Part shown: positions 6,621 to 55,885 of the stretch, piece after piece
How the letters are laid out: each line of letters opens with the position of its first letter
How positions within the stretch are numbered: position 1 is the stretch's first letter
Source of the DNA: a virus
Reading direction: 5' to 3' (one strand)
IMG/VR virus record: IMGVR_UViG_3300033056_000001
Coordinates: 1 to 64,000 of that record
Length of the DNA: 64,000 nucleotides
Made by a program: the position numbers and the translations under genes
Notes under the pieces: generated by a model
What the model was told of the DNA's origin: nothing
The model's input: the letters and a program-made list of their open reading frames with translations, nothing else
Databases searched by the model: none

Positions 6621-7937
6621 ATGAAAATATTAGTTATATTTATCTTGTACTTTTTGATTTTTGCATTTTGGAACATCTTTTTTGCCAAAAGAGATAAATT
6701 TAAAAATTTGTATTTAGTATTTTTCTTGTTCTTATTTAGTTTCTACCTATCTACTCCGTATTATCAAATAAATCTAGATGGTTCAAGGGAAAGCGCATCG
6801 TTACATACTGTTTTCGTAGCCTTGATTGTTTGCTTGTTTTTTGTCGCAAATAAAAGGGTTCTTAAACCAGGAAAAGAACTGATATTATTTATCCCTATAT
6901 TCTTCCAAGCTTTAATTACTGTGTTATACTTTAAGTTTAGTAATATTGCGGATGTCTTTGGTATTTTAAATGCTTATATAAGTATTTATCTGATTATCCT
7001 TATATATCGGAGTGTACCCAATATAGATATTAACAAATTTTTATACAGTATAAACTATCTAGCTTTGGTAAACGGAATTTTAGGTATGGCTCAATACATA
7101 ACGGGCAAAAGTTTATTGATCGGAAGTTTCAATAGTTCAATTCTTTATACAGAAGGTATGGTAGATATAAAACGTGTCATAGGATTAGCAGGAGCTAATA
7201 ATGCTGCCGGTACTTTTAGTGCTATACTTTTCGGCGTTGTCTTGTATAATTTACTAAAGAAGCGAGATATTCTAAGCTTAATAACCTTAATTATAACGAC
7301 TGTATTTGCTGTTTTAACTTTCACTAGGGTTGGCTATGTCGCTATTTTTGCAGAAGTTTTAATTTTTTGGTTTTTATACAAACCGAAAACAAAGAGAACT
7401 CAGTTTACAAAAATAATTTCGTTTTGTTTTGGCCTTCCTATTATAGTAATCGTCACTAGTAGTTTCGTTTCAGGCCTAATTAATAAATTATTTACGGAAC
7501 GTGGTGATACGTCCTCAGAAAGATTTAGGCAATTCCAAAGGGCATATGATTATGTTATTTCTAACAATTGGTTTTCAGGAATAGGAATAGGTCAATATAA
7601 ACCATATCTACTCAATAACTACCGAATAGCTGATTTACCAATACACTCTCAATACTTAAATGTTTTAGCAGAACAAGGAGTACTTATCTTAATTGTTTTT
7701 GTCCTCTTTAATTTCACGATAATTTACAAGATACTTAGAAACAAACACATAGATAAAGATTTAAAAGTACTAACAGTGGCGATTTTTTCGGCAAACTTTA
7801 TGTGTTCTAACTTTAACCCCAACCAATTTTATTACATGAATAACGTGCTTTACTACATTATTATGCTTGGTTTATATTTTTACGCGAAAAGATATAAAGT
7901 AGCGCCTTTGGATAAAGAGTTAAAAATAGCAGCATAG
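6621..7937 (+). CDS. O-antigen ligase/polymerase-like (Wzy_C family) polytopic membrane protein
   Basis: 438 aa with about 10-12 TM helices. Wzy_C-like motif region: FTRVGYVAIF ... PIHSQYLNVLAEQGVLILIV. Very AT-rich (roughly 25-30% GC by eye) compared with its neighbours. Opposite strand, with its own promoter and terminator. Confidence 0.75.
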   Translation: MKILVIFILYFLIFAFWNIFFAKRDKFKNLYLVFFLFLFSFYLSTPYYQINLDGSRESASLHTVFVALIVCLFFVANKRVLKPGKELILFIPIFFQALITVLYFKFSNIADVFGILNAYISIYLIILIYRSVPNIDINKFLYSINYLALVNGILGMAQYITGKSLLIGSFNSSILYTEGMVDIKRVIGLAGANNAAGTFSAILFGVVLYNLLKKRDILSLITLIITTVFAVLTFTRVGYVAIFAEVLIFWFLYKPKTKRTQFTKIISFCFGLPIIVIVTSSFVSGLINKLFTERGDTSSERFRQFQRAYDYVISNNWFSGIGIGQYKPYLLNNYRIADLPIHSQYLNVLAEQGVLILIVFVLFNFTIIYKILRNKHIDKDLKVLTVAIFSANFMCSNFNPNQFYYMNNVLYYIIMLGLYFYAKRYKVAPLDKELKIAA

Positions 7938-26159: not shown

Positions 26160-27688
26160 TACTTAGTCGCCTCCTCCTGCGGTTGATTGAATATCGAAGA
26201 ATCGACCGTACCCATTGCGGTTGTTTCATCGTCTTCGATGCGGCTCATGATTTCCTTCGCTTTGTCGTCGTCTACTTCGTCCTGGCGCTTGATTGCCGAC
26301 TGAACGTCTATCGTAGACTTGCCCGCTGTACGAATCTGCATGATTTCCGCTTCTTCTTTTTCGTTTTTAGGAATGCCGTCTTTCCACATGATCTTCGGAT
26401 AGACTGATTCGCCTGCGTATTCGCCGAATTGTGAATCGAATAGATAACACGTATACAAGGCATCGCGGATTCCTTTATCGTAGTGATTGCGGATCCTGCG
26501 AACCTTACTGATAATCGGCATGAAGCGTGCTTTGATCGCTGCGCCGTCTGTATGCGAAGTTCCTGTTCCGCCTGAGTCTCCGTCAGCCATCGTTGTACCG
26601 AATAACCACTGCGGCGTCTCGGACATCTGGAATATATACGAAACTAGGAAGTTGATTTCCTTAAATACATAGTCTAATTGACCGTCCCATGTAATAGCGC
26701 CAGGTGTTGCGTCTTCTTTCGTAATCGGAATGTACTTTCCGCCGAAACTAACACTGTTGCCTACGCCTTCTAAGTCGGGGCCGTATAATGTTGGATCGCT
26801 GTGCTTCATTAAGATAAAATCGAGTTGCGCGATGCGGTCTTCGATAGCCTGCAGCGCCTTCTCAATCTTTTCGATGAATCCGTCGCCTTGCCAGTCGTCA
26901 TCTACCGAAGAATACGGAATGTGAAACACCGGAATATGCGAAAGGCCAGTTTCGACGATATCTTCGTCACGTCCAGTCGCTACTTTGTCGCCGATTGTAT
27001 ATAACGTGATAGGTGTGCCGTACGTATTATCTACGCCGACTTCTGGGCGAGTAATTAATCGATATCTTTCGTATAGAATGTAGCCGGGAATGTGACGCTC
27101 GATGTTCAAATACGGAATCTCATCGTTACGAGTCTCAACCCATTCAATCTGCGCAATATTTACCGCTTTGAACTTCTTAACGTCGCCGTTACTTGTTTCC
27201 GGAAACACATACGAAGCGTTAACGTGCTCGATAATCGGCTCCATTTCAACGTCTTCAGGCACGTCCAGCCCTAAACGTGTGAGCTCCGAGTAATCTTGGC
27301 GATAACCATAACGTACTTTTACGAAACTGTCGCCGCGATATCCGTTTGACGTTGTGCTTTCATAAATAAGCGTGTTTAAATCGTTTTCTTCGACGTAACT
27401 GTTCAGCGCCTTTTGTTCGTTGCTGCTGTCCGGTTTGCCTGCTTCGTAAATTGGCGCATCTCCTACGAGTAGATCCGCAGGTTTTAGCGTCAGAATGTAC
27501 GGTAGGTTAATGGCGATATATAGAACGTCGAGTTGCGGTCGTTGCGGCGAGTCTTTTAGTAGTAATCGCGCTCGATCGTATACTTCCCATTGCTGACCTT
27601 TGAAGAACTTACGCATTCGGCTGTATTTAGCTAGCCTTTGAATTGAATCTTCTGGCGGAAACTGTTTACCGGTTTCAAATAATGCCAC
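26159..27688 (-). CDS. Portal protein
   Basis: 509 aa, between TerL and the minor head protein, with an acidic C-terminus. GTG start with a GGAGGT RBS. Confidence 0.8.
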   Translation of the reverse strand: MALFETGKQFPPEDSIQRLAKYSRMRKFFKGQQWEVYDRARLLLKDSPQRPQLDVLYIAINLPYILTLKPADLLVGDAPIYEAGKPDSSNEQKALNSYVEENDLNTLIYESTTSNGYRGDSFVKVRYGYRQDYSELTRLGLDVPEDVEMEPIIEHVNASYVFPETSNGDVKKFKAVNIAQIEWVETRNDEIPYLNIERHIPGYILYERYRLITRPEVGVDNTYGTPITLYTIGDKVATGRDEDIVETGLSHIPVFHIPYSSVDDDWQGDGFIEKIEKALQAIEDRIAQLDFILMKHSDPTLYGPDLEGVGNSVSFGGKYIPITKEDATPGAITWDGQLDYVFKEINFLVSYIFQMSETPQWLFGTTMADGDSGGTGTSHTDGAAIKARFMPIISKVRRIRNHYDKGIRDALYTCYLFDSQFGEYAGESVYPKIMWKDGIPKNEKEEAEIMQIRTAGKSTIDVQSAIKRQDEVDDDKAKEIMSRIEDDETTAMGTVDSSIFNQPQEEATK

Positions 27689-27779: not shown

Positions 27780-29546
27780 TTACATCCACGAAGGCTTTTG
27801 GCGTACCTTACGTTTACCCTGTTTCGATACTGATACGGAAATTTCGCAGCTATCGATAAGGTCATCGTTGTCAGCGCCGTAACGTTCAAACTGTTCAAGT
27901 AACAACGCATGTCTTCGCGAAAACTGTATCTTTCCGGTTTCTATATCCGGTAACATCGCCTCAATACGAAGCTCTTTACGGCTTCGCTGAAAGACCTTTT
28001 TAACGCGATTGTGTGCCGGATAACCCGTAATAGCTAATCGTTCTTTAAGCTTATCTACGAAGAATTCCTGCGCCATCTGCGCCTCTGCTCCGATTACGTC
28101 CGGCTGTAACTCTCGTACTTTATTAACGATAACTTCCATAAAAACGTCAGGATGAACGCGATCGCCATACGAATCTATTACGTAAACGACGCCTGTCTCT
28201 CGATGTCTTGCCGTTGCTGTAATCGCTGAGTAATCCCCGCGTTGTTTTCCCATCGCAAAGTCAATTCCGAGTGCTATCGTATAGTCCTTATGCGGAAACT
28301 GACGCGCCGGATCCTTATCGTCCCAGTACGTAAACTTCTCCGGATTGAATAGCATCGATTCTTCGTCGATAGGGTTGTTCATATACTCGGTGTTGAACGC
28401 TTTCGAGCCGTTGTCCCATTTCCACGCCATTAGCTTAAATAACGGCTGTACTTCAGGCCAGAGGACATTGGCGCCGCGGTCCATTTCGTCCTTATTCGCA
28501 ATATAAAAGAGCTCCGCCGTCTTTGCCGAGCGTGGATCTTCTCTATTTACGTATATCTGACGGCACTCTTCCCATAGGTCCATTCGTTCGGGCAAGTCGA
28601 TAATCGCTTGATATCGTTTCGCCTCGAAGTCAGCACGGTGTTTCATGACGTCGATTAAAAGTGATTCGTGATGGACTGTCGTACCCATGAATACGGTGGC
28701 AGTCTTTTTACCTTCCGGATCACCTAACGGAATTACTACTTGGCGGAACCAATCCTTTAGTTCCTGGCGCAACTGCTCCGTATTTGTGTTCCGTTTATCT
28801 TCTAAATCATCGCAGACAATTAAGTCCGGTCGATTTCCGTTCCAGTTACGTCCGCGTAGCGCTTGCCCTGACGAAGCAGCCTGCACTAGCGTAAGCATTT
28901 TCTGTTTACCGTTGCCGAGGTCTTCCCAGGCGATAAACTCTCCGCTGTTATCCTTCGGATTCATCTGCTGTTTAGGCGAAAGAATCTGGCCGAAATCGCG
29001 AATTAACTTTTCGTTGCCTTGCAGCTGTAACTTAATCCATTCGAGGTTAGCGCTAGCAACTGACGGCGTTTCCGAGATAATAATGATGTATTTACGCTTA
29101 CGATAAACGATTTCGTGTATCGGAAATGCTTTCGATAAGAAGCTCGACTTCGCATGTGATCGTGGCGCCGCAACTACTACGCGCTTGTTTATTTCTTCGT
29201 TCGATACTACGTTCATGATGTCGCAGATTTCATGATGGAAGTCCGGCGCGTGCTTCGTTATTGTGGTCATATCGTCGTCATGCTCAAATGCCGGAATCCA
29301 GTTTCCGCTATTATCGGGATTGGCGTTTTCACCGAACCAGTTATATGCGAAAAACAGCAGGTCGGTATCGCCTCGTTCGATTGCCTCTAAACGTTTCAAC
29401 TCGCGAATATACATCGCTAAGTCACGCTTTTCATCGGCGGTTAATTTGTCTATGTTGCGCGTTCTAGGGACGATGTACTGCCGCAGCTTATCGATTTCTT
29501 TTCTGCGTGTTTTTGCATCGCTCCAACTACCGTTAGTCCACGACAT
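27780..29546 (-). CDS. terL: Terminase large subunit
   Basis: 588 aa. Walker A-like VVAAPRSHAKSS, Walker B LIVCDDLED, and a C-terminal RNaseH-like nuclease region (LGIDFA...D). Followed by the portal gene. Confidence 0.85.
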   Translation of the reverse strand: MSWTNGSWSDAKTRRKEIDKLRQYIVPRTRNIDKLTADEKRDLAMYIRELKRLEAIERGDTDLLFFAYNWFGENANPDNSGNWIPAFEHDDDMTTITKHAPDFHHEICDIMNVVSNEEINKRVVVAAPRSHAKSSFLSKAFPIHEIVYRKRKYIIIISETPSVASANLEWIKLQLQGNEKLIRDFGQILSPKQQMNPKDNSGEFIAWEDLGNGKQKMLTLVQAASSGQALRGRNWNGNRPDLIVCDDLEDKRNTNTEQLRQELKDWFRQVVIPLGDPEGKKTATVFMGTTVHHESLLIDVMKHRADFEAKRYQAIIDLPERMDLWEECRQIYVNREDPRSAKTAELFYIANKDEMDRGANVLWPEVQPLFKLMAWKWDNGSKAFNTEYMNNPIDEESMLFNPEKFTYWDDKDPARQFPHKDYTIALGIDFAMGKQRGDYSAITATARHRETGVVYVIDSYGDRVHPDVFMEVIVNKVRELQPDVIGAEAQMAQEFFVDKLKERLAITGYPAHNRVKKVFQRSRKELRIEAMLPDIETGKIQFSRRHALLLEQFERYGADNDDLIDSCEISVSVSKQGKRKVRQKPSWM

Positions 29547-29587: not shown

Positions 29588-29618
29588 TTGACTTTCGATT
29601 ATGTATCGTGTTATATTG
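29588..29618 (+). promoter_or_regulatory. Putative promoter of the recombinase gene
   Basis: TTGACT at 29588, and TGtTATATT (extended -10) around 29610..29618. Spacer is 17-19 nt depending on which -10 is chosen. Confidence 0.45.
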
Positions 29619-29648
29619 AATGTAACAAAACGAGATAACGTTACGAAA
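29602..29648. repeat. Left copy of an imperfect direct repeat flanking the recombinase gene (contains a TGTAAC-N14-GTTACG dyad)
   Basis: Sequence TGTATCGTG-TTATATTGAATGTAACAAAACGAGATAACGTTACG. Compare with 30362..30421. Confidence 0.6.
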
Positions 29649-29660
29649 GGGGATTCCGAC

Positions 29661-30203
29661 ATGAACATCGTCCAACCAATCCGTAAGAAAACCGACATTA
29701 ATAAAATGAAAGCTGCGCTAGGTAATCCGCGCGACAAGTTACTGTTTATTTTCGGCATAAATTCAGCGTTAAGGATCTCCGACATACTAAAGCTAAAGGT
29801 TGGCGATGTTCGCGGTAAAGATGCGCTGAAACTGCGCGAAACTAAAACGAAAAAAGCGAAAGACTTCCTGCTGAATGATTCGATTAAGAAGGCGCTGAAG
29901 GAAATGTTACCTACCGACGCTAAAGACGGCGACTGGCTGTTTCCGTCACGTAAAGGCGACAAGGCTATTACGCGAGTTCAGGCGTATCGAGTATTAAACG
30001 CCGCCGCTGAACGTGCTGGCTTGGCGATTGAAATCGGAACACATACGTTAAGGAAGACATTCGCTTACCATGCGTATAAAGCAGGCGTTGATCTTACGTT
30101 GCTAATGTCCGTATTAAACCATTCAAGCCAACGCGAAACGCTTAAATATATCGGAATCGTCCAAGACGACGTTAACAGCGTATTTGCTGGCGTTAATTTA
30201 TAG
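29661..30203 (+). CDS. Minimal (catalytic-domain-only, 180 aa) tyrosine recombinase
   Basis: Catalytic residues are recognisable: ALRISD (Arg), HTLRKTF (His-x-x-Arg), LNHSS (His), ETLKYIG (Tyr). Start moved to Met21 of ORF 29601 (AAAGGGG RBS). About the size of FimB/FimE/RecV-type recombinases. Confidence 0.85.
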   Translation: MNIVQPIRKKTDINKMKAALGNPRDKLLFIFGINSALRISDILKLKVGDVRGKDALKLRETKTKKAKDFLLNDSIKKALKEMLPTDAKDGDWLFPSRKGDKAITRVQAYRVLNAAAERAGLAIEIGTHTLRKTFAYHAYKAGVDLTLLMSVLNHSSQRETLKYIGIVQDDVNSVFAGVNL

Positions 30204-30228
30204 AAACACTATTCGTTAGAATCGAAAG

Positions 30229-30266
30229 GCCCTCCGCCTACTTGACGGAAGGGCTTATTTTCGTTT
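30229..30266 (+). terminator. Intrinsic terminator after the recombinase gene
   Basis: GCCCTCCG-cctacttga-CGGAAGGGC (one bulge) followed by TTATTTTCGTTT. Confidence 0.5.
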
Positions 30267-30361
30267 ATGCTGACGTAAAGTCAAACGTTATTTTGATACG
30301 CCGATTTTTCTGGCGTCAGGAAACGGGATTCGGAGTGGGGCGGCCTGGGGGCTCGGTCCCG

Positions 30362-30421
30362 TGTATCGTTCATTCATTCGTTTGTATATCGAATGTAACA
30401 CAAACGCTTTATGTTACGTTT
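30362..30421. repeat. Right copy of the imperfect direct repeat flanking the recombinase gene
   Basis: Sequence TGTATCGTT(cattcattcgt)TTGTATATCGAATGTAACACAAACGCTTTATGTTACG. Shares TGTATCGT, TATAT(T/C)GAATGTAACA, AAACG and GTTACG with the left copy. Confidence 0.6.
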
Positions 30422-30689
30422 AAATATTAATTAAATCGTTGATATAACAACGTTCGCAATGAATCAAATGCGTTATTAATTACGAATACATTTATGCATG
30501 CGTCATATCAACGTTTGTGCTACGCTATTAACCTACGTATAATGCATAAGATACTGCATAAACGACAGTCATTCCGAAAAGTTTCAGGCGCCTGTCTGTC
30601 AGACCCTACGTGCTGGTAGATAGTACATCGTAGTACATACGCTACTCACACTACCGCCGAGTATCTACTATTATATAGTACGTACTATC

Positions 30690-31094
30690 TTACGCCTTGT
30701 ACTCCTCGCCATCTAACCTCTTAGCAAACGACTCTATCTCTGCGTCAATCACATCGTAATCCACACCGTTAGTATTATCGACTGCTGATACTTCGTGCTT
30801 CTCCGTTAGCATTTCGTTAAGCTGTAATACGAGCTTAGCCATCGCTGCATTCTCCGTTTCTGCTGCAACGCGGTAGATATTATCGAGTACTTCCGGTAGC
30901 CTCGACTGTGCATTCCGTACCATCTCACGCTTTAACTCTCGCTCAAATAACGGATCCTTCTTCCAGTTGAATATCGTTGTTCTACCTACGCCTACTTCCT
31001 GCGCTATCTGTTCCGCTGTAAGACCGCCTTGCTTCGGTTGTGATAACAGCTTAATAGCGTGATAGTGTTCGGTAGATAATCGTTTAAGTGCCAT
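30690..31094 (-). CDS. Terminase small subunit candidate (HTH, phBC6A51-type)
   Basis: 134 aa. N-terminal HTH GGLTAEQIAQEVGVGRTTIFNWKK, acidic C-terminus. It is the last gene before the TerL region, but is separated from terL by the recombinase cassette. Confidence 0.55.
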   Translation of the reverse strand: MALKRLSTEHYHAIKLLSQPKQGGLTAEQIAQEVGVGRTTIFNWKKDPLFERELKREMVRNAQSRLPEVLDNIYRVAAETENAAMAKLVLQLNEMLTEKHEVSAVDNTNGVDYDVIDAEIESFAKRLDGEEYKA

Positions 31095-32784: not shown

Positions 32785-33372
32785 CTAGAGTTTCTTCCTC
32801 AAATCATGTATTTTAGCCCTAATTCTCGGCATTTCGACCTCAATTTCCGCCAGTCTTTCGCCGTCCCTTAACGCCTGCCCTAGCGATAATTCATTAAAAT
32901 AGTCGTCGTCCAGCAATTCGTGGTCCGGATTCTCTTCGAATTCCTCTCCGTCATTCATGTACGACCATTCAATCGACTGCTTTTCTTCGGATAGTTGGTA
33001 CAGCGTATACTCTAACCGGTCGATTTCCTCCTCAATACCAGCGCGAACTTCCGGAACCTCATCGTAAACTTTGGCGACATTATATTTCGGCTGCAATTCG
33101 TTAATGAAGAACGTCTCGTATACTTCCCGTTCGTAATCATCCGGAATATCGTATAGCTGGATTGTTTCGATTTGACCAACGAATAACTTACTGCGCCCGT
33201 CTCCTCGGCGATGATCCGCCAGTCTTTTACGGAACTGCATCGTTTTACCGACGTATAAAACAAGGCCGAAGCGATCTTTGAATACGTAGACCCCTCCGAC
33301 TGACTCTCGCAAGCTGTTAATCTCTTTTAGCGTAATTGTGGCGTATACTTCCGGCGCTGTTATTTTAATCAA
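32785..33372 (-). CDS. GIY-YIG nuclease (homing-endonuclease-like)
   Basis: GGVYVFKDRFGLVLYVGKTMQFRKRLADHRRG ... YETFFINELQPKYN carries the GIY..YVG..R..H..E..N motifs. 195 aa. Confidence 0.8.
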   Translation of the reverse strand: MIKITAPEVYATITLKEINSLRESVGGVYVFKDRFGLVLYVGKTMQFRKRLADHRRGDGRSKLFVGQIETIQLYDIPDDYEREVYETFFINELQPKYNVAKVYDEVPEVRAGIEEEIDRLEYTLYQLSEEKQSIEWSYMNDGEEFEENPDHELLDDDYFNELSLGQALRDGERLAEIEVEMPRIRAKIHDLRKKL

Positions 33373-40674: not shown

Positions 40675-41712
40675 TTATAAATCGTCGAACCCGTTCGCAT
40701 CTGACGCCTTCGTATACTGGCGTGATTTCTGCTCGAAGAAGTCCGTCTTGCCTAAGTCGACCTCCTGGTAAGCGATGATCCAACGCATCGGATTCTCGTT
40801 GTAGCCTTCGAATGGTTTATCGAATCCTAGCTGTTTACAGCGCTTGTTTGCCATAAATTTGATGTATGCGTCTAGTTCCGCTTTGCTTACCCCGTCGAAT
40901 TTATCGCCAACAACACCATTCCCCCAAGCAATTTCTAATTCGGCAGCACGAACGAATGTATCTCGAACGAACTCGGCTAGTTCTGGCGTGTTGTGTTCTG
41001 GATTTTCGTCTAGTACGGCTTGAAATATCTTGATAAATAAATCAACGTGTAATTCCTCATCACGATTAATAAAATTTATCATTGTTGACGTCGAAACCAT
41101 TTTTCGATTTCGTGCTAAGTTGTAGAAGAAAGCAAATCCGCTGTAGAAGAATAATCCTTCGAGAATAACGTCATAAACAATAGATTTTAAGAAATTAGCG
41201 ACTGTCGGATCCTCAGCAAAATCTTTATAGCCATCCGTTACGAATTCATTACGTTCAAGCAATAACGGTTCAGTACGCCAGTAATCAAATACCTCGTCTT
41301 GTTTCGCTTTATTAACAACGCTTGAAAGTACGTACGAATAAGAATGGTTATGTACGACCTCCTGCTGTGCTAAGATAATCATTAAAGCGTTAATTGAAGA
41401 GTCGGTGATGTAGTCTGCTGCTTTCATTGCGTAATCTGATTGAATTGAATCTAATAATGCTAAAAGTCCGATAATCTTTAAGAATGATTCTTGCTCATCC
41501 TTTGTTAGTTGCGGGAACTGCTTGATATCTTGCCCCATGTTAACTTCGAAAGGTACCCAAAAATTAGCTAGCATTCTCTTATATTTAGGGAATGCGAACG
41601 GGAATCTTACGTCATCCCAGTTTAGGATATTCGAGGACTGTCCATTGACAATCCCCGTTGATCTATTCGGTGCGTTTACGTCCACTAATTTACGTTTTTC
41701 CATATTAAGCAA
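40675..41712 (-). CDS. nrdF: Ribonucleotide reductase beta (R2) subunit
   Basis: Di-iron ligand helices present (EVVHNHSYSY, ILEGLFFYSGF, RDEELH). 345 aa. Confidence 0.9.
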   Translation of the reverse strand: MLNMEKRKLVDVNAPNRSTGIVNGQSSNILNWDDVRFPFAFPKYKRMLANFWVPFEVNMGQDIKQFPQLTKDEQESFLKIIGLLALLDSIQSDYAMKAADYITDSSINALMIILAQQEVVHNHSYSYVLSSVVNKAKQDEVFDYWRTEPLLLERNEFVTDGYKDFAEDPTVANFLKSIVYDVILEGLFFYSGFAFFYNLARNRKMVSTSTMINFINRDEELHVDLFIKIFQAVLDENPEHNTPELAEFVRDTFVRAAELEIAWGNGVVGDKFDGVSKAELDAYIKFMANKRCKQLGFDKPFEGYNENPMRWIIAYQEVDLGKTDFFEQKSRQYTKASDANGFDDL

Positions 41713-42247
41713 CCTCCCAATTTTTAGATAGAATAAAAGTATGGTTTAATTTTTTATAATAAAAACCTGATGGATTTTTCCTAATGCTTTTAATTAAATA
41801 GTCGTAGTTTACATTTAAGTCTTCAGCGCACTCTAATACAGAAGAAAAGAAGCGAACATTGCCCGCAGAATCTTTCAATAATACTGGACACTTACTACGA
41901 GGTATTTTGGGTACTTTTTTATTAGTCGTAGCAATCAGACCTGTATCAACAGCATGTTTTATATTATTAGAAGGACTGACCCACTCTAAGTTATTCGGAT
42001 GATTGTTAGTTTTATCGCCGTCGATGTGATTAACTTGTGTTTTTACTTTGGGATTATCGTTATCAAGCCAGGTAAGCGCCACTACCCGATGGGCGCTATA
42101 CCATTTCTTGTTAAGACAATACTTAAAGTAACCGTTAGTTCCTGGAAGTTCTTTCAAAACCCTCTTAGTAATTGAATTTCTAATCTTACCTTCGAAATTA
42201 ACCTCGTAATCTAAATCCAACGGAAAAGGTAACCATTCGAACAGCAT
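41705..42247 (-). CDS. HNH homing endonuclease (NUMOD4 + HNH_3-like) between nrdE and nrdF
   Basis: WLPFP..DYEVNFEGKIRN and NHIDGDKTNNHPNNLEWVSPSNNIKHA. Clearly more AT-rich than the flanking RNR genes. Confidence 0.85.
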   Translation of the reverse strand: MLFEWLPFPLDLDYEVNFEGKIRNSITKRVLKELPGTNGYFKYCLNKKWYSAHRVVALTWLDNDNPKVKTQVNHIDGDKTNNHPNNLEWVSPSNNIKHAVDTGLIATTNKKVPKIPRSKCPVLLKDSAGNVRFFSSVLECAEDLNVNYDYLIKSIRKNPSGFYYKKLNHTFILSKNWEVA

Positions 42248-44757: not shown

Positions 44758-45299
44758 TTCGAAATCAACTCCTCGTTAATTAAGTACGCTAATCCCAAAG
44801 CCGCTGCGTCCGATTCGTCATCGCAAGCAAACTCGCCTTTGTAACCAGTAATGGTTCGAACCGAAGCTTCAATTTCTTCTTTCGTTGCAACTCCCGAACC
44901 AACTACGATATTCTTCATATTCGACTGTGGAATGCCGAGGTGTATTTTCCGCTTGCCTTTACGGTCGACTGTAACGAATTGCGAAAACTCTAGTCCGAGA
45001 AACTCAACGGCCCTCGCACACGCTGCCCAAGCGCTAAGAACCGGATAATTCTGTTTCGATGATTGACCGTGAAAGTCTTCGCGAGTTACGATATCGATGC
45101 CTTTTCCGATGTGATTCGATATAAAAGAAACGGCCCACGCATAGACTAATTCGTGCCGTATTGCGTGGCTTAGTTTTGTATTTGGTTTAACGTGACTCAC
45201 TGCGATGATTTTCGGTTTGTTGTCCCGAACCTCAATCAAACATAGGCCGGGAGAGCTGAGACTTGTATCAAATGAGAGTATCCTAGTAATCGTGGGCAT
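44754..45299 (-). CDS. RuvC-like Holliday junction resolvase
   Basis: Catalytic acidic residues in RuvC order: ILSFDTS (Asp), TREDFHG (Glu), DDESDAAALGLAYL (Asp/Asp). Confidence 0.65.
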   Translation of the reverse strand: MPTITRILSFDTSLSSPGLCLIEVRDNKPKIIAVSHVKPNTKLSHAIRHELVYAWAVSFISNHIGKGIDIVTREDFHGQSSKQNYPVLSAWAACARAVEFLGLEFSQFVTVDRKGKRKIHLGIPQSNMKNIVVGSGVATKEEIEASVRTITGYKGEFACDDESDAAALGLAYLINEELISK

Positions 45300-46203
45300 C
45301 TTTTACCCTCCTTAAAAATTCTCCGAACTGCGACTTAGTATTATTCTTATATCCATAAGTCATATGGAAACTTTTATGGCACCTTCTGCATAACGTAGCG
45401 CCATTGGAAACATCGAATCTTAATTCTTCTTTTGCGTCATAAGATTCTATATGATGAGCAACCATGATTTCCTCAGATATACCACACTTTACACAAGTAT
45501 TATCATCACGCTTTTTAACATGCCTCGCCCATTTACGAATAGGTCCGTCAGCACCTCTACCTAGCCTTCTTTGTCTTTCTGTTCTCTCACTGTTCCAATT
45601 ATGATGATTTTCTCCTTTTCGCTTTTCTGATGAACACTCTTTACATCTGTTCCCGTTAAGAAAACTTTTGAAGGTAATTTTTGATTTATTGCCGCAACTA
45701 CAAATGTAATTTAATTTAGCGTGATTGTTCGTGTACGTCTTATCCAAAAGAATGCATCCTGCGGAGGAGAAGTATGAAGATACAAAACTATAATCGTATG
45801 CTAATTTTTCAGCTACTTTAGATACGCCACACGCCTTACATCTTTTACCTGTTTTGAAATCAGATAATGTTATCTTTGAAGAATTACCGCAAGAGCACCG
45901 GTATCTCATAGCTGTGTGGTTGTTTTCGTAATTATCTTCAAGTAATTCACACCCTCCGTTTACAAACACTTCTTTCGCCTGATCTATTGTTAATTTCTTC
46001 AGCGCAGCGACCTTTTTGGCGCCACAATGTCTACATCTTATTCCTCGTTTGAATCTGTGCGTTTGTGTATAAGCTTCGTTCCCACAAACACATTTATATC
46101 GTAACTTTTGATTACAGCCCAAGTATTCATCTTCCAATAACTCGCAACCTTCCTCGGAAAACATGGTTTTTAGTTCATCTAGGGTATATTTACCCGCCAT
46201 CAA
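45283..46203 (-). CDS. HNH endonuclease with three tandem zinc-ribbon repeats
   Basis: Three ~48-aa repeats (GCELLEDxY....LxYxCxCGN...T...F..G.RC..CG) followed by HNH (CVKCG...HHI...N...LCRRCHKSFH). AT-rich. Confidence 0.75.
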   Translation of the reverse strand: MMAGKYTLDELKTMFSEEGCELLEDEYLGCNQKLRYKCVCGNEAYTQTHRFKRGIRCRHCGAKKVAALKKLTIDQAKEVFVNGGCELLEDNYENNHTAMRYRCSCGNSSKITLSDFKTGKRCKACGVSKVAEKLAYDYSFVSSYFSSAGCILLDKTYTNNHAKLNYICSCGNKSKITFKSFLNGNRCKECSSEKRKGENHHNWNSERTERQRRLGRGADGPIRKWARHVKKRDDNTCVKCGISEEIMVAHHIESYDAKEELRFDVSNGATLCRRCHKSFHMTYGYKNNTKSQFGEFLRRVKDAHDY

Positions 46204-54697: not shown

Positions 54698-55885
54698 TCA
54701 TTTAGCGAATTGCCCGTATACCGCCTCTGCCACAGATTTTAGAGTTTCGGATTTTCTTAGCTGTTCTAACGGTAGTTGCGCAAAGAATAAATCACCGACT
54801 TTCAAGAATTGGCTTAACGATTTAAACAGCATATCACTGTCGTTAGTGGCTAACCCTTTGTAATAGAAGTAGTACATCGCTTCTTCCGCTTCACTAACTT
54901 CCTTTTCGATAATCTCTAGGGCTTTACCTTTATCGCCCCATTTTGCCTCATAATGCGCAATTACTACCGGTACGCCTTCCGTAACCTTTACTCCATGGTG
55001 CGCGTCTAAAAACGGGAGGAACCATCGTTCTAACTCGTCAGCAAAACCTTCGTAATTAGCTTCGCGGTAAACATCGATCGCCTGCTTCGTATTTAGCACG
55101 CTCAGCTCGTAGCTTTCGAATGTAAACGACGTTCCTAATAGATAATACGAATTCGCTTTAAATATCGCACAAATATCCTGTGAAATATTTTTTGTTGCGT
55201 GCTCTCTTGCCTTTTCTACGTCTGCCAATACGTATAAAAAGCGTTTCCCTAATAGATCATTGAGCCTTACCTCAAAAGACATTCTGAAAAAGCAATCTTT
55301 CAAATTATACACGTCTTGTTCAATTTCATCACATATCCTAGACATAGTATGTAGATAAGCTGCTGATGTTGAAAGTATTCTATAACATACGTTAGCCTCT
55401 ACTAAGTTTAATAATAGTTTCATCTCACTGTCGTTTGTAGACACTTTTCTGACTTTATCTAACATTTCTTTATTTTTTATTTCTCCAGCTTCGTAGCTGG
55501 ATATCATTCCGTAAAGAGCACCCCAACGTTTTAAATTTTTATTTGTTGAAGTATCAACCTTTACTTTAATATAGTCATTTAAGACATCTAAATTTTTGTT
55601 TAGAGATAAGTACTCCATCGCAGCTTTTATATTTTCAGGTAACTCTAATTTGTATGCCCAATCTATAAGTTGAACATCGTCCTTAAATAAACTTCTTGAT
55701 ATTTTATAGAGTTTACAAAAACCAGGCTCCACTCCTTCATATAGGTATCTTCTCATAGTTCTAACATCTACTTCTGCAATTCTAGCCAAATCCTTAACCG
55801 GTATATTTTCTTCCAAACAATCCAACATTGTTTCAAGTGCGTTCCCGATCAATCGCAACACCCTTTCGAAAGTGCCTGCCAGCAT
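54698..55885 (-). CDS. aimR: AimR-like arbitrium receptor / transcription regulator (N-terminal HTH plus TPR-like helical repeats, RRNPP-type)
   Basis: 395 aa. HTH IPVKDLARIAEVDVRTMRRYL. All-helical body. The C-terminus YYFYYKGL...FLKVGDLFFAQLPLEQLRK resembles SPbeta AimR (from memory). The true start may be an internal TTG near 55852, preceded by GAAAGGG. Confidence 0.8.
   Translation of the reverse strand: MLAGTFERVLRLIGNALETMLDCLEENIPVKDLARIAEVDVRTMRRYLYEGVEPGFCKLYKISRSLFKDDVQLIDWAYKLELPENIKAAMEYLSLNKNLDVLNDYIKVKVDTSTNKNLKRWGALYGMISSYEAGEIKNKEMLDKVRKVSTNDSEMKLLLNLVEANVCYRILSTSAAYLHTMSRICDEIEQDVYNLKDCFFRMSFEVRLNDLLGKRFLYVLADVEKAREHATKNISQDICAIFKANSYYLLGTSFTFESYELSVLNTKQAIDVYREANYEGFADELERWFLPFLDAHHGVKVTEGVPVVIAHYEAKWGDKGKALEIIEKEVSEAEEAMYYFYYKGLATNDSDMLFKSLSQFLKVGDLFFAQLPLEQLRKSETLKSVAEAVYGQFAK

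Follow-up and report, generated by a model that had tools for sequence, protein, structure and literature searches.

Results

A small recombinase gene between the terminase genes

We analyzed a 64,000-nucleotide stretch of DNA (hereafter the window; positions 1 to 64,000 of IMG/VR virus record IMGVR_UViG_3300033056_000001), which is phage-like and carries nearly all of its genes on the − strand, and within it a module made up of a small tyrosine recombinase gene and the two related DNA sites that flank it. The gene (29661..30203, + strand) lies antisense to both of its neighbors, which are terL, for a large terminase subunit of T7 type (27780..29546, − strand; phrog_38, 5e-93; NCBIfam termin_lrg_T7 was matched below its cut-off), and a terS-like gene for a small terminase subunit with a helix-turn-helix domain (30690..31094, − strand; phrog_2538, 1.1e-18; Pfam HTH_Tnp_1_2). 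An earlier reading of the letters alone (the sequence-only reading) had described the antisense recombinase, the two terminase genes and the flanking repeats, and all of these elements lie where it had placed them. The interpretation that we come to favor is a Cre/loxP-like one, in which the downstream site would lie in the terminal repeat of the packaged genome.

The encoded protein has 180 amino acids (aa) and consists of a catalytic domain only, without a core-binding domain. It matches Pfam Phage_integrase (PF00589) over residues 22-164 (9.4e-25; 87.8 bits against a cut-off of 27.1) and phrog_216, annotated as "integrase" (1.4e-58). Alignment with XerA places the catalytic residues at R38, K62, H128-x-x-R131, H154 and Y163; among 30 homologues, R38, K62, R131, H154 and Y163 are invariant and H128 is at least 90% conserved, so that the earlier description of a catalytic-domain-only enzyme with R, H-x-x-R, H and Y stands. 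The reduced size is a property of the family, since all but two of 120 listed homologues are 178-185 aa long, with PF00589 as the sole domain in each. A sequence search of the PDB returned XerA (4a8e, 7.5e-11, catalytic part only) and no match to Cre, to which the likeness is at the level of the fold and of the catalytic domain only. With an AlphaFold2 model of the protein (pLDDT 89.9), Foldseek retrieved XerA (5hxy, 6.7e-9), the isolated catalytic domains of the HP1 and P2 integrases (TM-score ~0.7, normalized to the target) and Cre (TM-score about 0.73-0.76, normalized to the query). Judged by profile, fold and catalytic residues, the protein is a member of the tyrosine recombinase superfamily. 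The profile classification that the sequence-only reading had called for makes it a member of PF00589 that misses the cut-offs of XerA, XerD, PRK09870 and PRK09871; the suggested likeness to FimB, FimE and RecV is right as to size and ends there, the family-level scores being below their cut-offs. Candidate specificity-distinguishing residues (T61K, 96-106 and A138R) were set aside because they are confounded with clade membership.

The gene has signals of its own. The best promoter-like site of the region (29588..29617, + strand; 10/12 matches) consists of TTGACT and TATATT separated by 18 nt, with a TG before the −10 box, and the architecture TTGACT...TATAnT is kept in relatives. A G+C-rich hairpin followed by a T-run (30224..30258), kept in relatives with compensatory differences, reads as the terminator of the gene; its stem is also a hairpin on the − strand, where a scan placed it at 30230-30252.

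Two related sites with different centers

The two repeat copies (29612-29645 and 30385-30418) are 74% identical without gaps, and align better with one indel. Both have the form TGTAAC-N13-GTTAC, or in summary GAATGTAAC-N13-GTTAC, in the same (direct) orientation; the dyad had been reported with a spacing of N13/14, and it is present in both copies with a spacing of N13 in each. The exact 9-mer GAATGTAAC, the 16-mer TATATYGAATGTAACA and the gapped pattern TGTAAC-N10-18-GTTAC each occur twice in the 64 kb, at these two places only, the chance expectation for the gapped pattern being 0.36. No further copy of the sites was found elsewhere in the window, for instance near partition or replication genes, and a 27-nt full-site pattern with up to three mismatches returned the same two places. 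The imperfect, same-orientation repetition noticed earlier is thus real, and the pair of sites is kept in dozens of related loci. Matches to GAATGTAAC with one mismatch number 31 in the whole window, against a mean of 18 in dinucleotide shuffles, none of which reached 31. Two of them lie close together within the portal gene, at 27076 and 27088. The excess may be an effect of composition.

Site 1 (29618..29648, + strand; GAATGTAACAAAAC-GAG-ATAACGTTACGAAA) directly abuts the −10 box of the recombinase promoter and covers the expected transcription start and the 5′ leader. Its left half-site, GAATGTAACA, is strong, and its right half is weak, with the GTTAC core only. The left half-site right after the −10 box is kept in most relatives, and the right half is weak or absent in many of them. 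Site 1 is probably an autoregulatory operator.

Site 2 (30391..30421; GAATGTAACACAA-ACGCT-TTATGTTACGTTT) is a near-perfect palindrome of 31 bp with 13-bp arms and a 5-bp center (13+5+13), a geometry based on the alignment of 23 distinct homologous sites. Over these 23, 80.6% of the cells are symmetric, against 34-46% in controls in which one arm was slid, and changes occur on both sides at columns 4-6. We infer that site 2 is the actual recombination site, analogous to lox.

The centers of the two sites differ (...AAAAC-GAG-ATAAC... in site 1 and ...ACAA-ACGCT-TTAT... in site 2), with about 2/7 of the central bases in common. Strand exchange by tyrosine recombinases requires identical overlap regions. 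The two sites are therefore poor recombination partners, and, as far as their sequences allow this to be judged, recombination between them should be blocked.

Conservation of the module and co-variation of sites with the recombinase

Searches with the recombinase and with TerL gave more than 200 loci. The order terL (−), recombinase (+), noncoding region, terS (−) is found in more than 60 of them, even where TerL is 30% identical, and the recombinase gene is present in every close relative whose sequence spans both flanks. The layout with two sites is likewise kept: the promoter site stands 33-51 nt before the start codon, and the palindrome, in loci of the Bacillus cereus group, ~165 bp past the stop. 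The center at each position is conserved across genomes, yet it differs between promoter site and palindrome in all relatives. The terS-like gene is not always in the same place: B. velezensis (L212, JABAGN010000001) has it downstream of terL, and in pBWB403 (L163) it is adjacent to terL on the upstream side, with the recombinase divergent from terS and beside both genes, not between them. The splitting of terS from terL is therefore not a constant property of the module.

Three close relatives (L032, L033 and L034) carry a different allele of the recombinase. Their TerL proteins are 96-97% identical to that of the window, the DNA of the compared terL portion is 84-100% identical, and for TerS the identity reaches 99-100% in two of them, L032 and L033 (49% in L034), whereas their recombinases are just 64-65% identical to that of the window. 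In these genomes the half-sites are (C)TCAAC/GTTGA(G), not GTAAC/GTTAC, at both the promoter (which reads CTCAAC...GTTGAG) and the downstream palindrome, and the ~90-bp block between the gene and the palindrome stays 84-96% identical despite this change. Two further loci (L037 and L171) also belong to the TCAAC class. Among 63 loci, GTAAC half-sites were counted in 28, TTAAC in seven and TCAAC in six. These alignments indicate that an allele and its sites are exchanged as a unit across the conserved intervening block. Cognate binding sites would be expected to behave in this way, all four half-sites changing together with the allele of the recombinase. When the same three relatives, and also L165-L169, are compared with 29600-30450 of the window, the site changes fall in two separate patches. 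L033 in addition carries an insertion of ~500 bp (L033:3589-4096) between the recombinase terminator and the conserved box described below, relative to the window and to L034.

The palindrome in the terminus region

Upstream of the palindrome lies a conserved box (30272..30318; GTCAAACGTTATTTTGATACGCCGATTTTTCTGGCGTCA, with GATACGCCG at 30295) that is nearly invariant in five close relatives, carriers of the different allele included, and is also kept in phages Lietuvens, phi18-2 and 268TH002 and in the B. cereus plasmids. We infer that the box is a terminase recognition or cutting region.

For three relatives in GenBank the ends are determined or evident; they count as two independent lineages, since phi18-2 hardly differs from 268TH002. 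Direct terminal repeats of 437 bp are annotated in Lietuvens, and the records of phi18-2 and 268TH002 begin and end with exact repeats of 309 bp and 310 bp, respectively. In all three the repeat starts at a point homologous to ~30319 of the window, the conserved box (GTCAAA..ATTTTTGA.A.GCG) stops 14-15 nt short of the inner edge, on its outer side, and the repeat contains the full palindrome at a distance of 78-139 bp from that edge (3/3). The Geobacillus phage GR1, considered as an additional case with known ends, was uninformative, its record being circular and its gene far from terL.

The window has the same order, namely the box (30272-30318), the same G-rich stretch, the palindrome and then ATCAACGTT motifs, as do the B. 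cereus plasmids. By homology, a single (collapsed) copy of a short direct terminal repeat is predicted at 30319..30680, its inner edge at ~30319 and its outer edge at some point ahead of the terS stop; in this phage, too, the repeat would thus start near 30319 and contain site 2. The predicted repeat also holds an inverted pair of ATCAACGTT-containing motifs (30434..30518; inverted repeat I8), of which GCGTCAnATCAACG is kept in four distant relatives and in the B. cereus plasmids; the pair may be bound by TerS or act as a signal for replication.

Plasmid-type genes and other features of the window

At the left edge of the window lie parM and a parR-like gene for plasmid partition (2..1284, + strand; NCBIfam and Pfam). 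ParM is well supported (NCBIfam 2.3e-62; Pfam actin-like domains), and the ParR match is weak. The parM frame (2-1012, + strand) is open from base 2, the list of open reading frames (ORFs) giving an internal ATG at 323 only; the window edge cuts the gene, so the replicon reaches beyond the window. The window also encodes Replic_Relax, an FtsK-like ATPase, an AimR-like arbitrium receptor (54698-55885, − strand; Pfam 1.6e-54), and, for replication and nucleotide metabolism, a family A DNA polymerase, a helicase, a primase, ribonucleotide reductase and ThyX. No second tyrosine or serine recombinase was found by Pfam scans of the nonstructural ORFs of at least ~130 aa or by tblastn with a full-length integrase and a serine recombinase.

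The nearest complete records are circular Bacillus plasmids that are themselves phages, namely B. cereus B6 plasmid unnamed3 (NZ_CP133652; 67.6 kb, with the gene order of the window) and pBWB403, and the small-recombinase family occurs on more than 3000 Firmicutes plasmids. Given the ParM/ParR-like genes and AimR, the lack of another recombinase and the circular plasmid relatives, we read the window as a temperate Bacillaceae siphophage in plasmid-prophage form (a phage-plasmid). A near-identity DNA search of the recombinase region against GenBank phages gave no match, nor did the exact recombinase sequence when looked up in the assembly index.

Two further observations concern other parts of the window. 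Where the tail genes give way to the lysis genes, a gene of low GC content (0.33) on the opposite strand (6621-7937, + strand) encodes a Wzy_C/O-antigen-ligase-like membrane protein and looks like a lysogenic-conversion moron. One GIY-YIG and two HNH endonuclease genes (32785-33372, 41705-42247 and 45283-46203, − strand), one of which splits the pair of ribonucleotide reductase subunit genes, probably encode homing endonucleases.

Replacement of the recombinase and its retention in integrating relatives

In two IMG/VR contigs (L180:1624-2214 and L182:808-1398), the slot between terS and terL is filled by a serine recombinase of 196 aa (Pfam Resolvase, 1e-34 and 1e-37), read in the same direction as the packaging genes; TerL in these contigs is 57-58% identical to that of the window. 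Such non-orthologous replacement argues that what the slot calls for is site-specific recombination itself.

The module is also kept by phages and elements that integrate. 268TH002 has a genome plan like that of the window, with AimR and 310-bp repeats, and a 351-aa integrase in place of the partition genes, and it retains the small recombinase and the site within the repeat, which points to circularization as the role common to both lifestyles. The recombinase is likewise retained with an intact site in B. velezensis (L212) and in a Cytobacillus element (L211). The latter is an integrated plasmid-like element next to clpP in the Cytobacillus kochii chromosome (CM126253, 4096404-4116946), with a primase (PriCT), an Alp7A-like actin and a small recombinase 72% identical to that of the window, a palindrome lying ~250 bp upstream; it adjoins an apparent full-length integrase (the called gene is truncated) and a sequence that, judged by eye, resembles a tRNA gene. 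The small recombinase is thus not the integrase and has a role beyond plasmid maintenance.

Discussion

A proposed Cre/loxP-like role

We think it rather probable that the module is a Cre/loxP-like system that circularizes the incoming genome and resolves multimers. The T7-type terminase would package DNA with short direct terminal repeats, so that the linear genome carries site 2 in each repeat, as two identical direct copies. The recombinase, whose gene has a promoter of its own and runs counter to all its neighbors, would recognize both sites; by joining the end copies of site 2 it would circularize the genome after entry, and by the same reaction between site-2 copies it would turn plasmid multimers into monomers. 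Site 1 would not be a partner of site 2; its half-site at the −10 box would let the recombinase repress its own promoter. The separate promoter, the terminator and the opposite orientation would uncouple the gene from late transcription, and antisense late transcription would silence it when packaging needs concatemers. Dimer-resolution or autoregulatory sites of a plasmid-prophage were among the three possibilities raised by the sequence-only reading, and it is this one that the partition genes, the circular plasmid relatives and the position of copy 1 on the promoter favor.

A broader form of the proposal we put forward tentatively and hold with somewhat less than even confidence: that widespread temperate phages of Bacillaceae circularize by means of a 180-aa recombinase and a 31-bp site embedded in the terminal repeat, with self-repression, with orthogonal specificity classes (GTAAC, TCAAC and TTAAC) and with serine resolvases able to take the place of the enzyme.

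Several points weigh against the proposed role. The position of the repeat in this phage comes from homology, the window holding one collapsed copy. The specificity classes coincide with clades, hence the number of independent co-variation events is small, and the arms in L032 and L169 are mixed or ACAAC. The recombinase is missing from the slot in L175, L178, L187, Halcyone and Tripp; packaging as such therefore does not require it. More distant members of the family (44-48% identity) directly follow ArpU-like late activators in integrating phages: in phage phIS3501 (L213; NC_019502, 15235-16259) the recombinase overlaps the ArpU-like activator, and similar neighborhoods occur in many B. cereus, Streptococcus and Listeria phages. 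Dyads of the GTAAC type were looked for near the phIS3501 member and none was found, and the family may have another or an additional role in the ArpU-linked phages. Lacking a core-binding domain, the protein may need partners or act mainly as a DNA-binding regulator, and no experimental evidence of binding or recombination by family members was found in the literature searched.

Alternative explanations

The alternative that survives best, although we regard it as unlikely, assigns resolution alone to the module: site 2 would be a cer- or rfsF-like site that lies near the packaging region by chance and has no circularizing role. The plasmid lifestyle indicated by ParM and ParR, the frequency of the family on ordinary small plasmids, the position of the Cytobacillus gene beside primase and Alp7A-like genes, and the published annotations, which propose multimer resolution, are all consistent with it. 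A resolution site could sit anywhere on a plasmid, however, and this one is always within the same conserved terminus region and is inside the terminal repeat in each of the three relatives with known ends; in addition, 268TH002, which integrates by its own integrase, retains the module.

Less likely still, and in our view improbable, is a non-catalytic DNA-binding regulator derived from a recombinase, controlling its own expression, terL transcription or packaging through the two sites. The protein has no core-binding domain, site 1 overlaps the promoter region, a weak promoter-like site on the − strand (GTTACA-17-CATAAT) faces terL, and in other phages related genes share their transcripts with ArpU-like late activators. 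What argues against such a regulator is that the family keeps all the catalytic residues with little or no variation, as expected if catalysis is retained, that a serine resolvase replaces the recombinase in the same slot, and that site 2 is built like a recombinase core site.

We give very little credence to the other two possibilities of the sequence-only reading, in which the copies are attL/attR-like ends of a small mobile cassette or form a switch in which the 773-bp segment between them is excised or flipped, so as to gate read-through from terS into terL. Related sites in direct orientation do flank exactly the recombinase gene, the protein is of FimB/FimE size, and the recombinase allele is swapped between otherwise near-identical phages. 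Yet the centers differ, both in the window and consistently in relatives, the right half of site 1 is weak or absent in many of these, and in Lietuvens the better-matching half-site (GAATGTAAC) of the repeat palindrome is on the opposite side compared with the promoter site. The arrangement is a conserved fixture of more than 60 loci, kept across TerL families that are 30% identical, copy 2 lies in the terminus region, and the pBWB403 gene is beside, not between, terS and terL. Comparison of relatives had been proposed as a way to define an empty site; none of the close relatives covering both flanks shows an empty or inverted state, and the related loci, more than 100 in number, include no inverted arrangement. 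The module is real and conserved, and is neither a mobile cassette nor a terS-terL switch.

It is equally hard to sustain that the recombinase is the phage integrase, with site 2 as attP for chromosomal integration. The database annotation "site-specific integrase" and the presence of some homologues on megabase-sized contigs would fit, but site 2 and its flanks are uninterrupted in all isolate and plasmid sequences, including B. velezensis L212 and the B. gaemokensis scaffold L079, separate full-length integrases are present in 268TH002 and the Cytobacillus element, the nearest complete relatives are circular plasmids, and the window has a partition system.

That the dyads are hairpins or signals for terminase or a repressor, and are merely linked physically to the recombinase, is highly improbable: site 2 does sit amid packaging signals and can form a modest hairpin as a single strand (−8 to −8.6 kcal/mol), but the half-sites track the recombinase allele while TerS is 99-100% and TerL 97% identical (L032 and L033) and the box is conserved, and site 1 as RNA folds weakly, no better than shuffled sequence (−2.8 kcal/mol, z = −0.5), with no Rfam match and no tRNAs, so that RNA hairpins were rejected as the main explanation.

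Novelty and implications

Genes of this kind are already known from Bacillus phage-plasmids (B83 and pBWB403), where they are annotated as Xer-like. Four points appear to be new, namely the delimitation of both sites, the way in which these co-vary with the enzyme, the placement of the main site within the terminal repeat and the replacement by a resolvase; the literature searched contained annotation-level statements on the small recombinase and no description of these four points.

If the Cre/loxP-like proposal is correct, it explains how temperate phages with short direct repeats circularize before they integrate or settle as plasmids, and why a small "integrase," so far annotated as Xer-like, stands beside the terminase genes in many Bacillus phage-plasmids. 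The enzyme, which at 180 aa is very compact and has no core-binding domain, would also come with a site of 31 bp and with naturally occurring variants in specificity, and so be informative about DNA recognition by tyrosine recombinases that lack the N-terminal clamp and possibly useful as a tool. For annotation, such genes should not be read as integrases or as proof of chromosomal integration.

Comparison with known systems

The nearest described cases are the Bacillus phage-plasmids themselves. In B83, gp01 is terS, gp02 a Xer-like recombinase for which multimer resolution was proposed, and gp04 terL, and packaging is headful (PMC6669507). Plasmid prophages like pBWB403 have been described with Xer-like recombinases, also proposed to act in multimer resolution (PMC8026635). 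B83 has the gene order of the window and is likened to it by gene order alone; the recombinases of pBWB403 and B. cereus B6 unnamed3 are 55% and 72% identical to that of the window, respectively, and share its packaging-gene neighborhood. The window differs from B83 in its packaging, which is headful in the latter, and from pBWB403 in that the gene of the latter is upstream of terS-terL; both reports give gene annotation without defined sites (PMC6669507, PMC8026635).

FimB and FimE share with the window protein a length of ~200 aa and the lack of an N-terminal core-binding domain, and NCBIfam PRK09870 matches it over residues 24-164 (8.6e-15). The scores, however, are far below the cut-offs (54.9 bits against 221 for PRK09870; 41.9 against 222 for PRK09871), and, in contrast to FimB, FimE and RecV, the window protein goes with no invertible segment: its sites are direct, their centers are unlike, and inverted forms are not seen in relatives. 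The single-recombinase Xer systems (XerA/dif, XerH/difH and XerS/difSL) give the best catalytic-domain matches in sequence and structure and combine one recombinase, a palindromic site and dimer resolution. They differ in being two-domain and chromosomal, the window protein covering positions 98-261 of the 263 of the XerA model; it scores 87 bits against a cut-off of 220 for XerA and 59 against 329.6 for XerD, and dif is 11+6+11, whereas the window site is 13+5+13 (31 bp). Small serine resolvases occupy the identical slot between terS and terL in L180 and L182, which implies the same job, but they belong to an unrelated protein family with another chemistry and are co-oriented with the packaging genes in those contigs.

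In phage P1, recombination by Cre at loxP circularizes the terminally redundant DNA after entry and resolves plasmid dimers. P1 has been listed as a plasmid prophage with Cre (PMC8026635). The two systems share a single tyrosine recombinase of a plasmid prophage with the same catalytic-domain fold and a palindromic site of ~31-34 bp with an asymmetric center. By homology with the three relatives of known ends, the site of the window would also be placed such that packaged DNA can hold two direct copies, and the expected roles are circularization and dimer resolution. They differ in that Cre has 343 aa in two domains, whereas the window protein has 180 aa and no core-binding domain; in that loxP is 13+8+13 and the window site 13+5+13; and in that P1 packages by headful with a long terminal redundancy, whereas the present phage has a T7-type terminase and, by homology, short exact repeats. 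The window module further has an extra site on the recombinase promoter, and the sequence relationship is at the superfamily level only. Cre/loxP is thus the functionally closest system, and the window protein is not of the Cre family.

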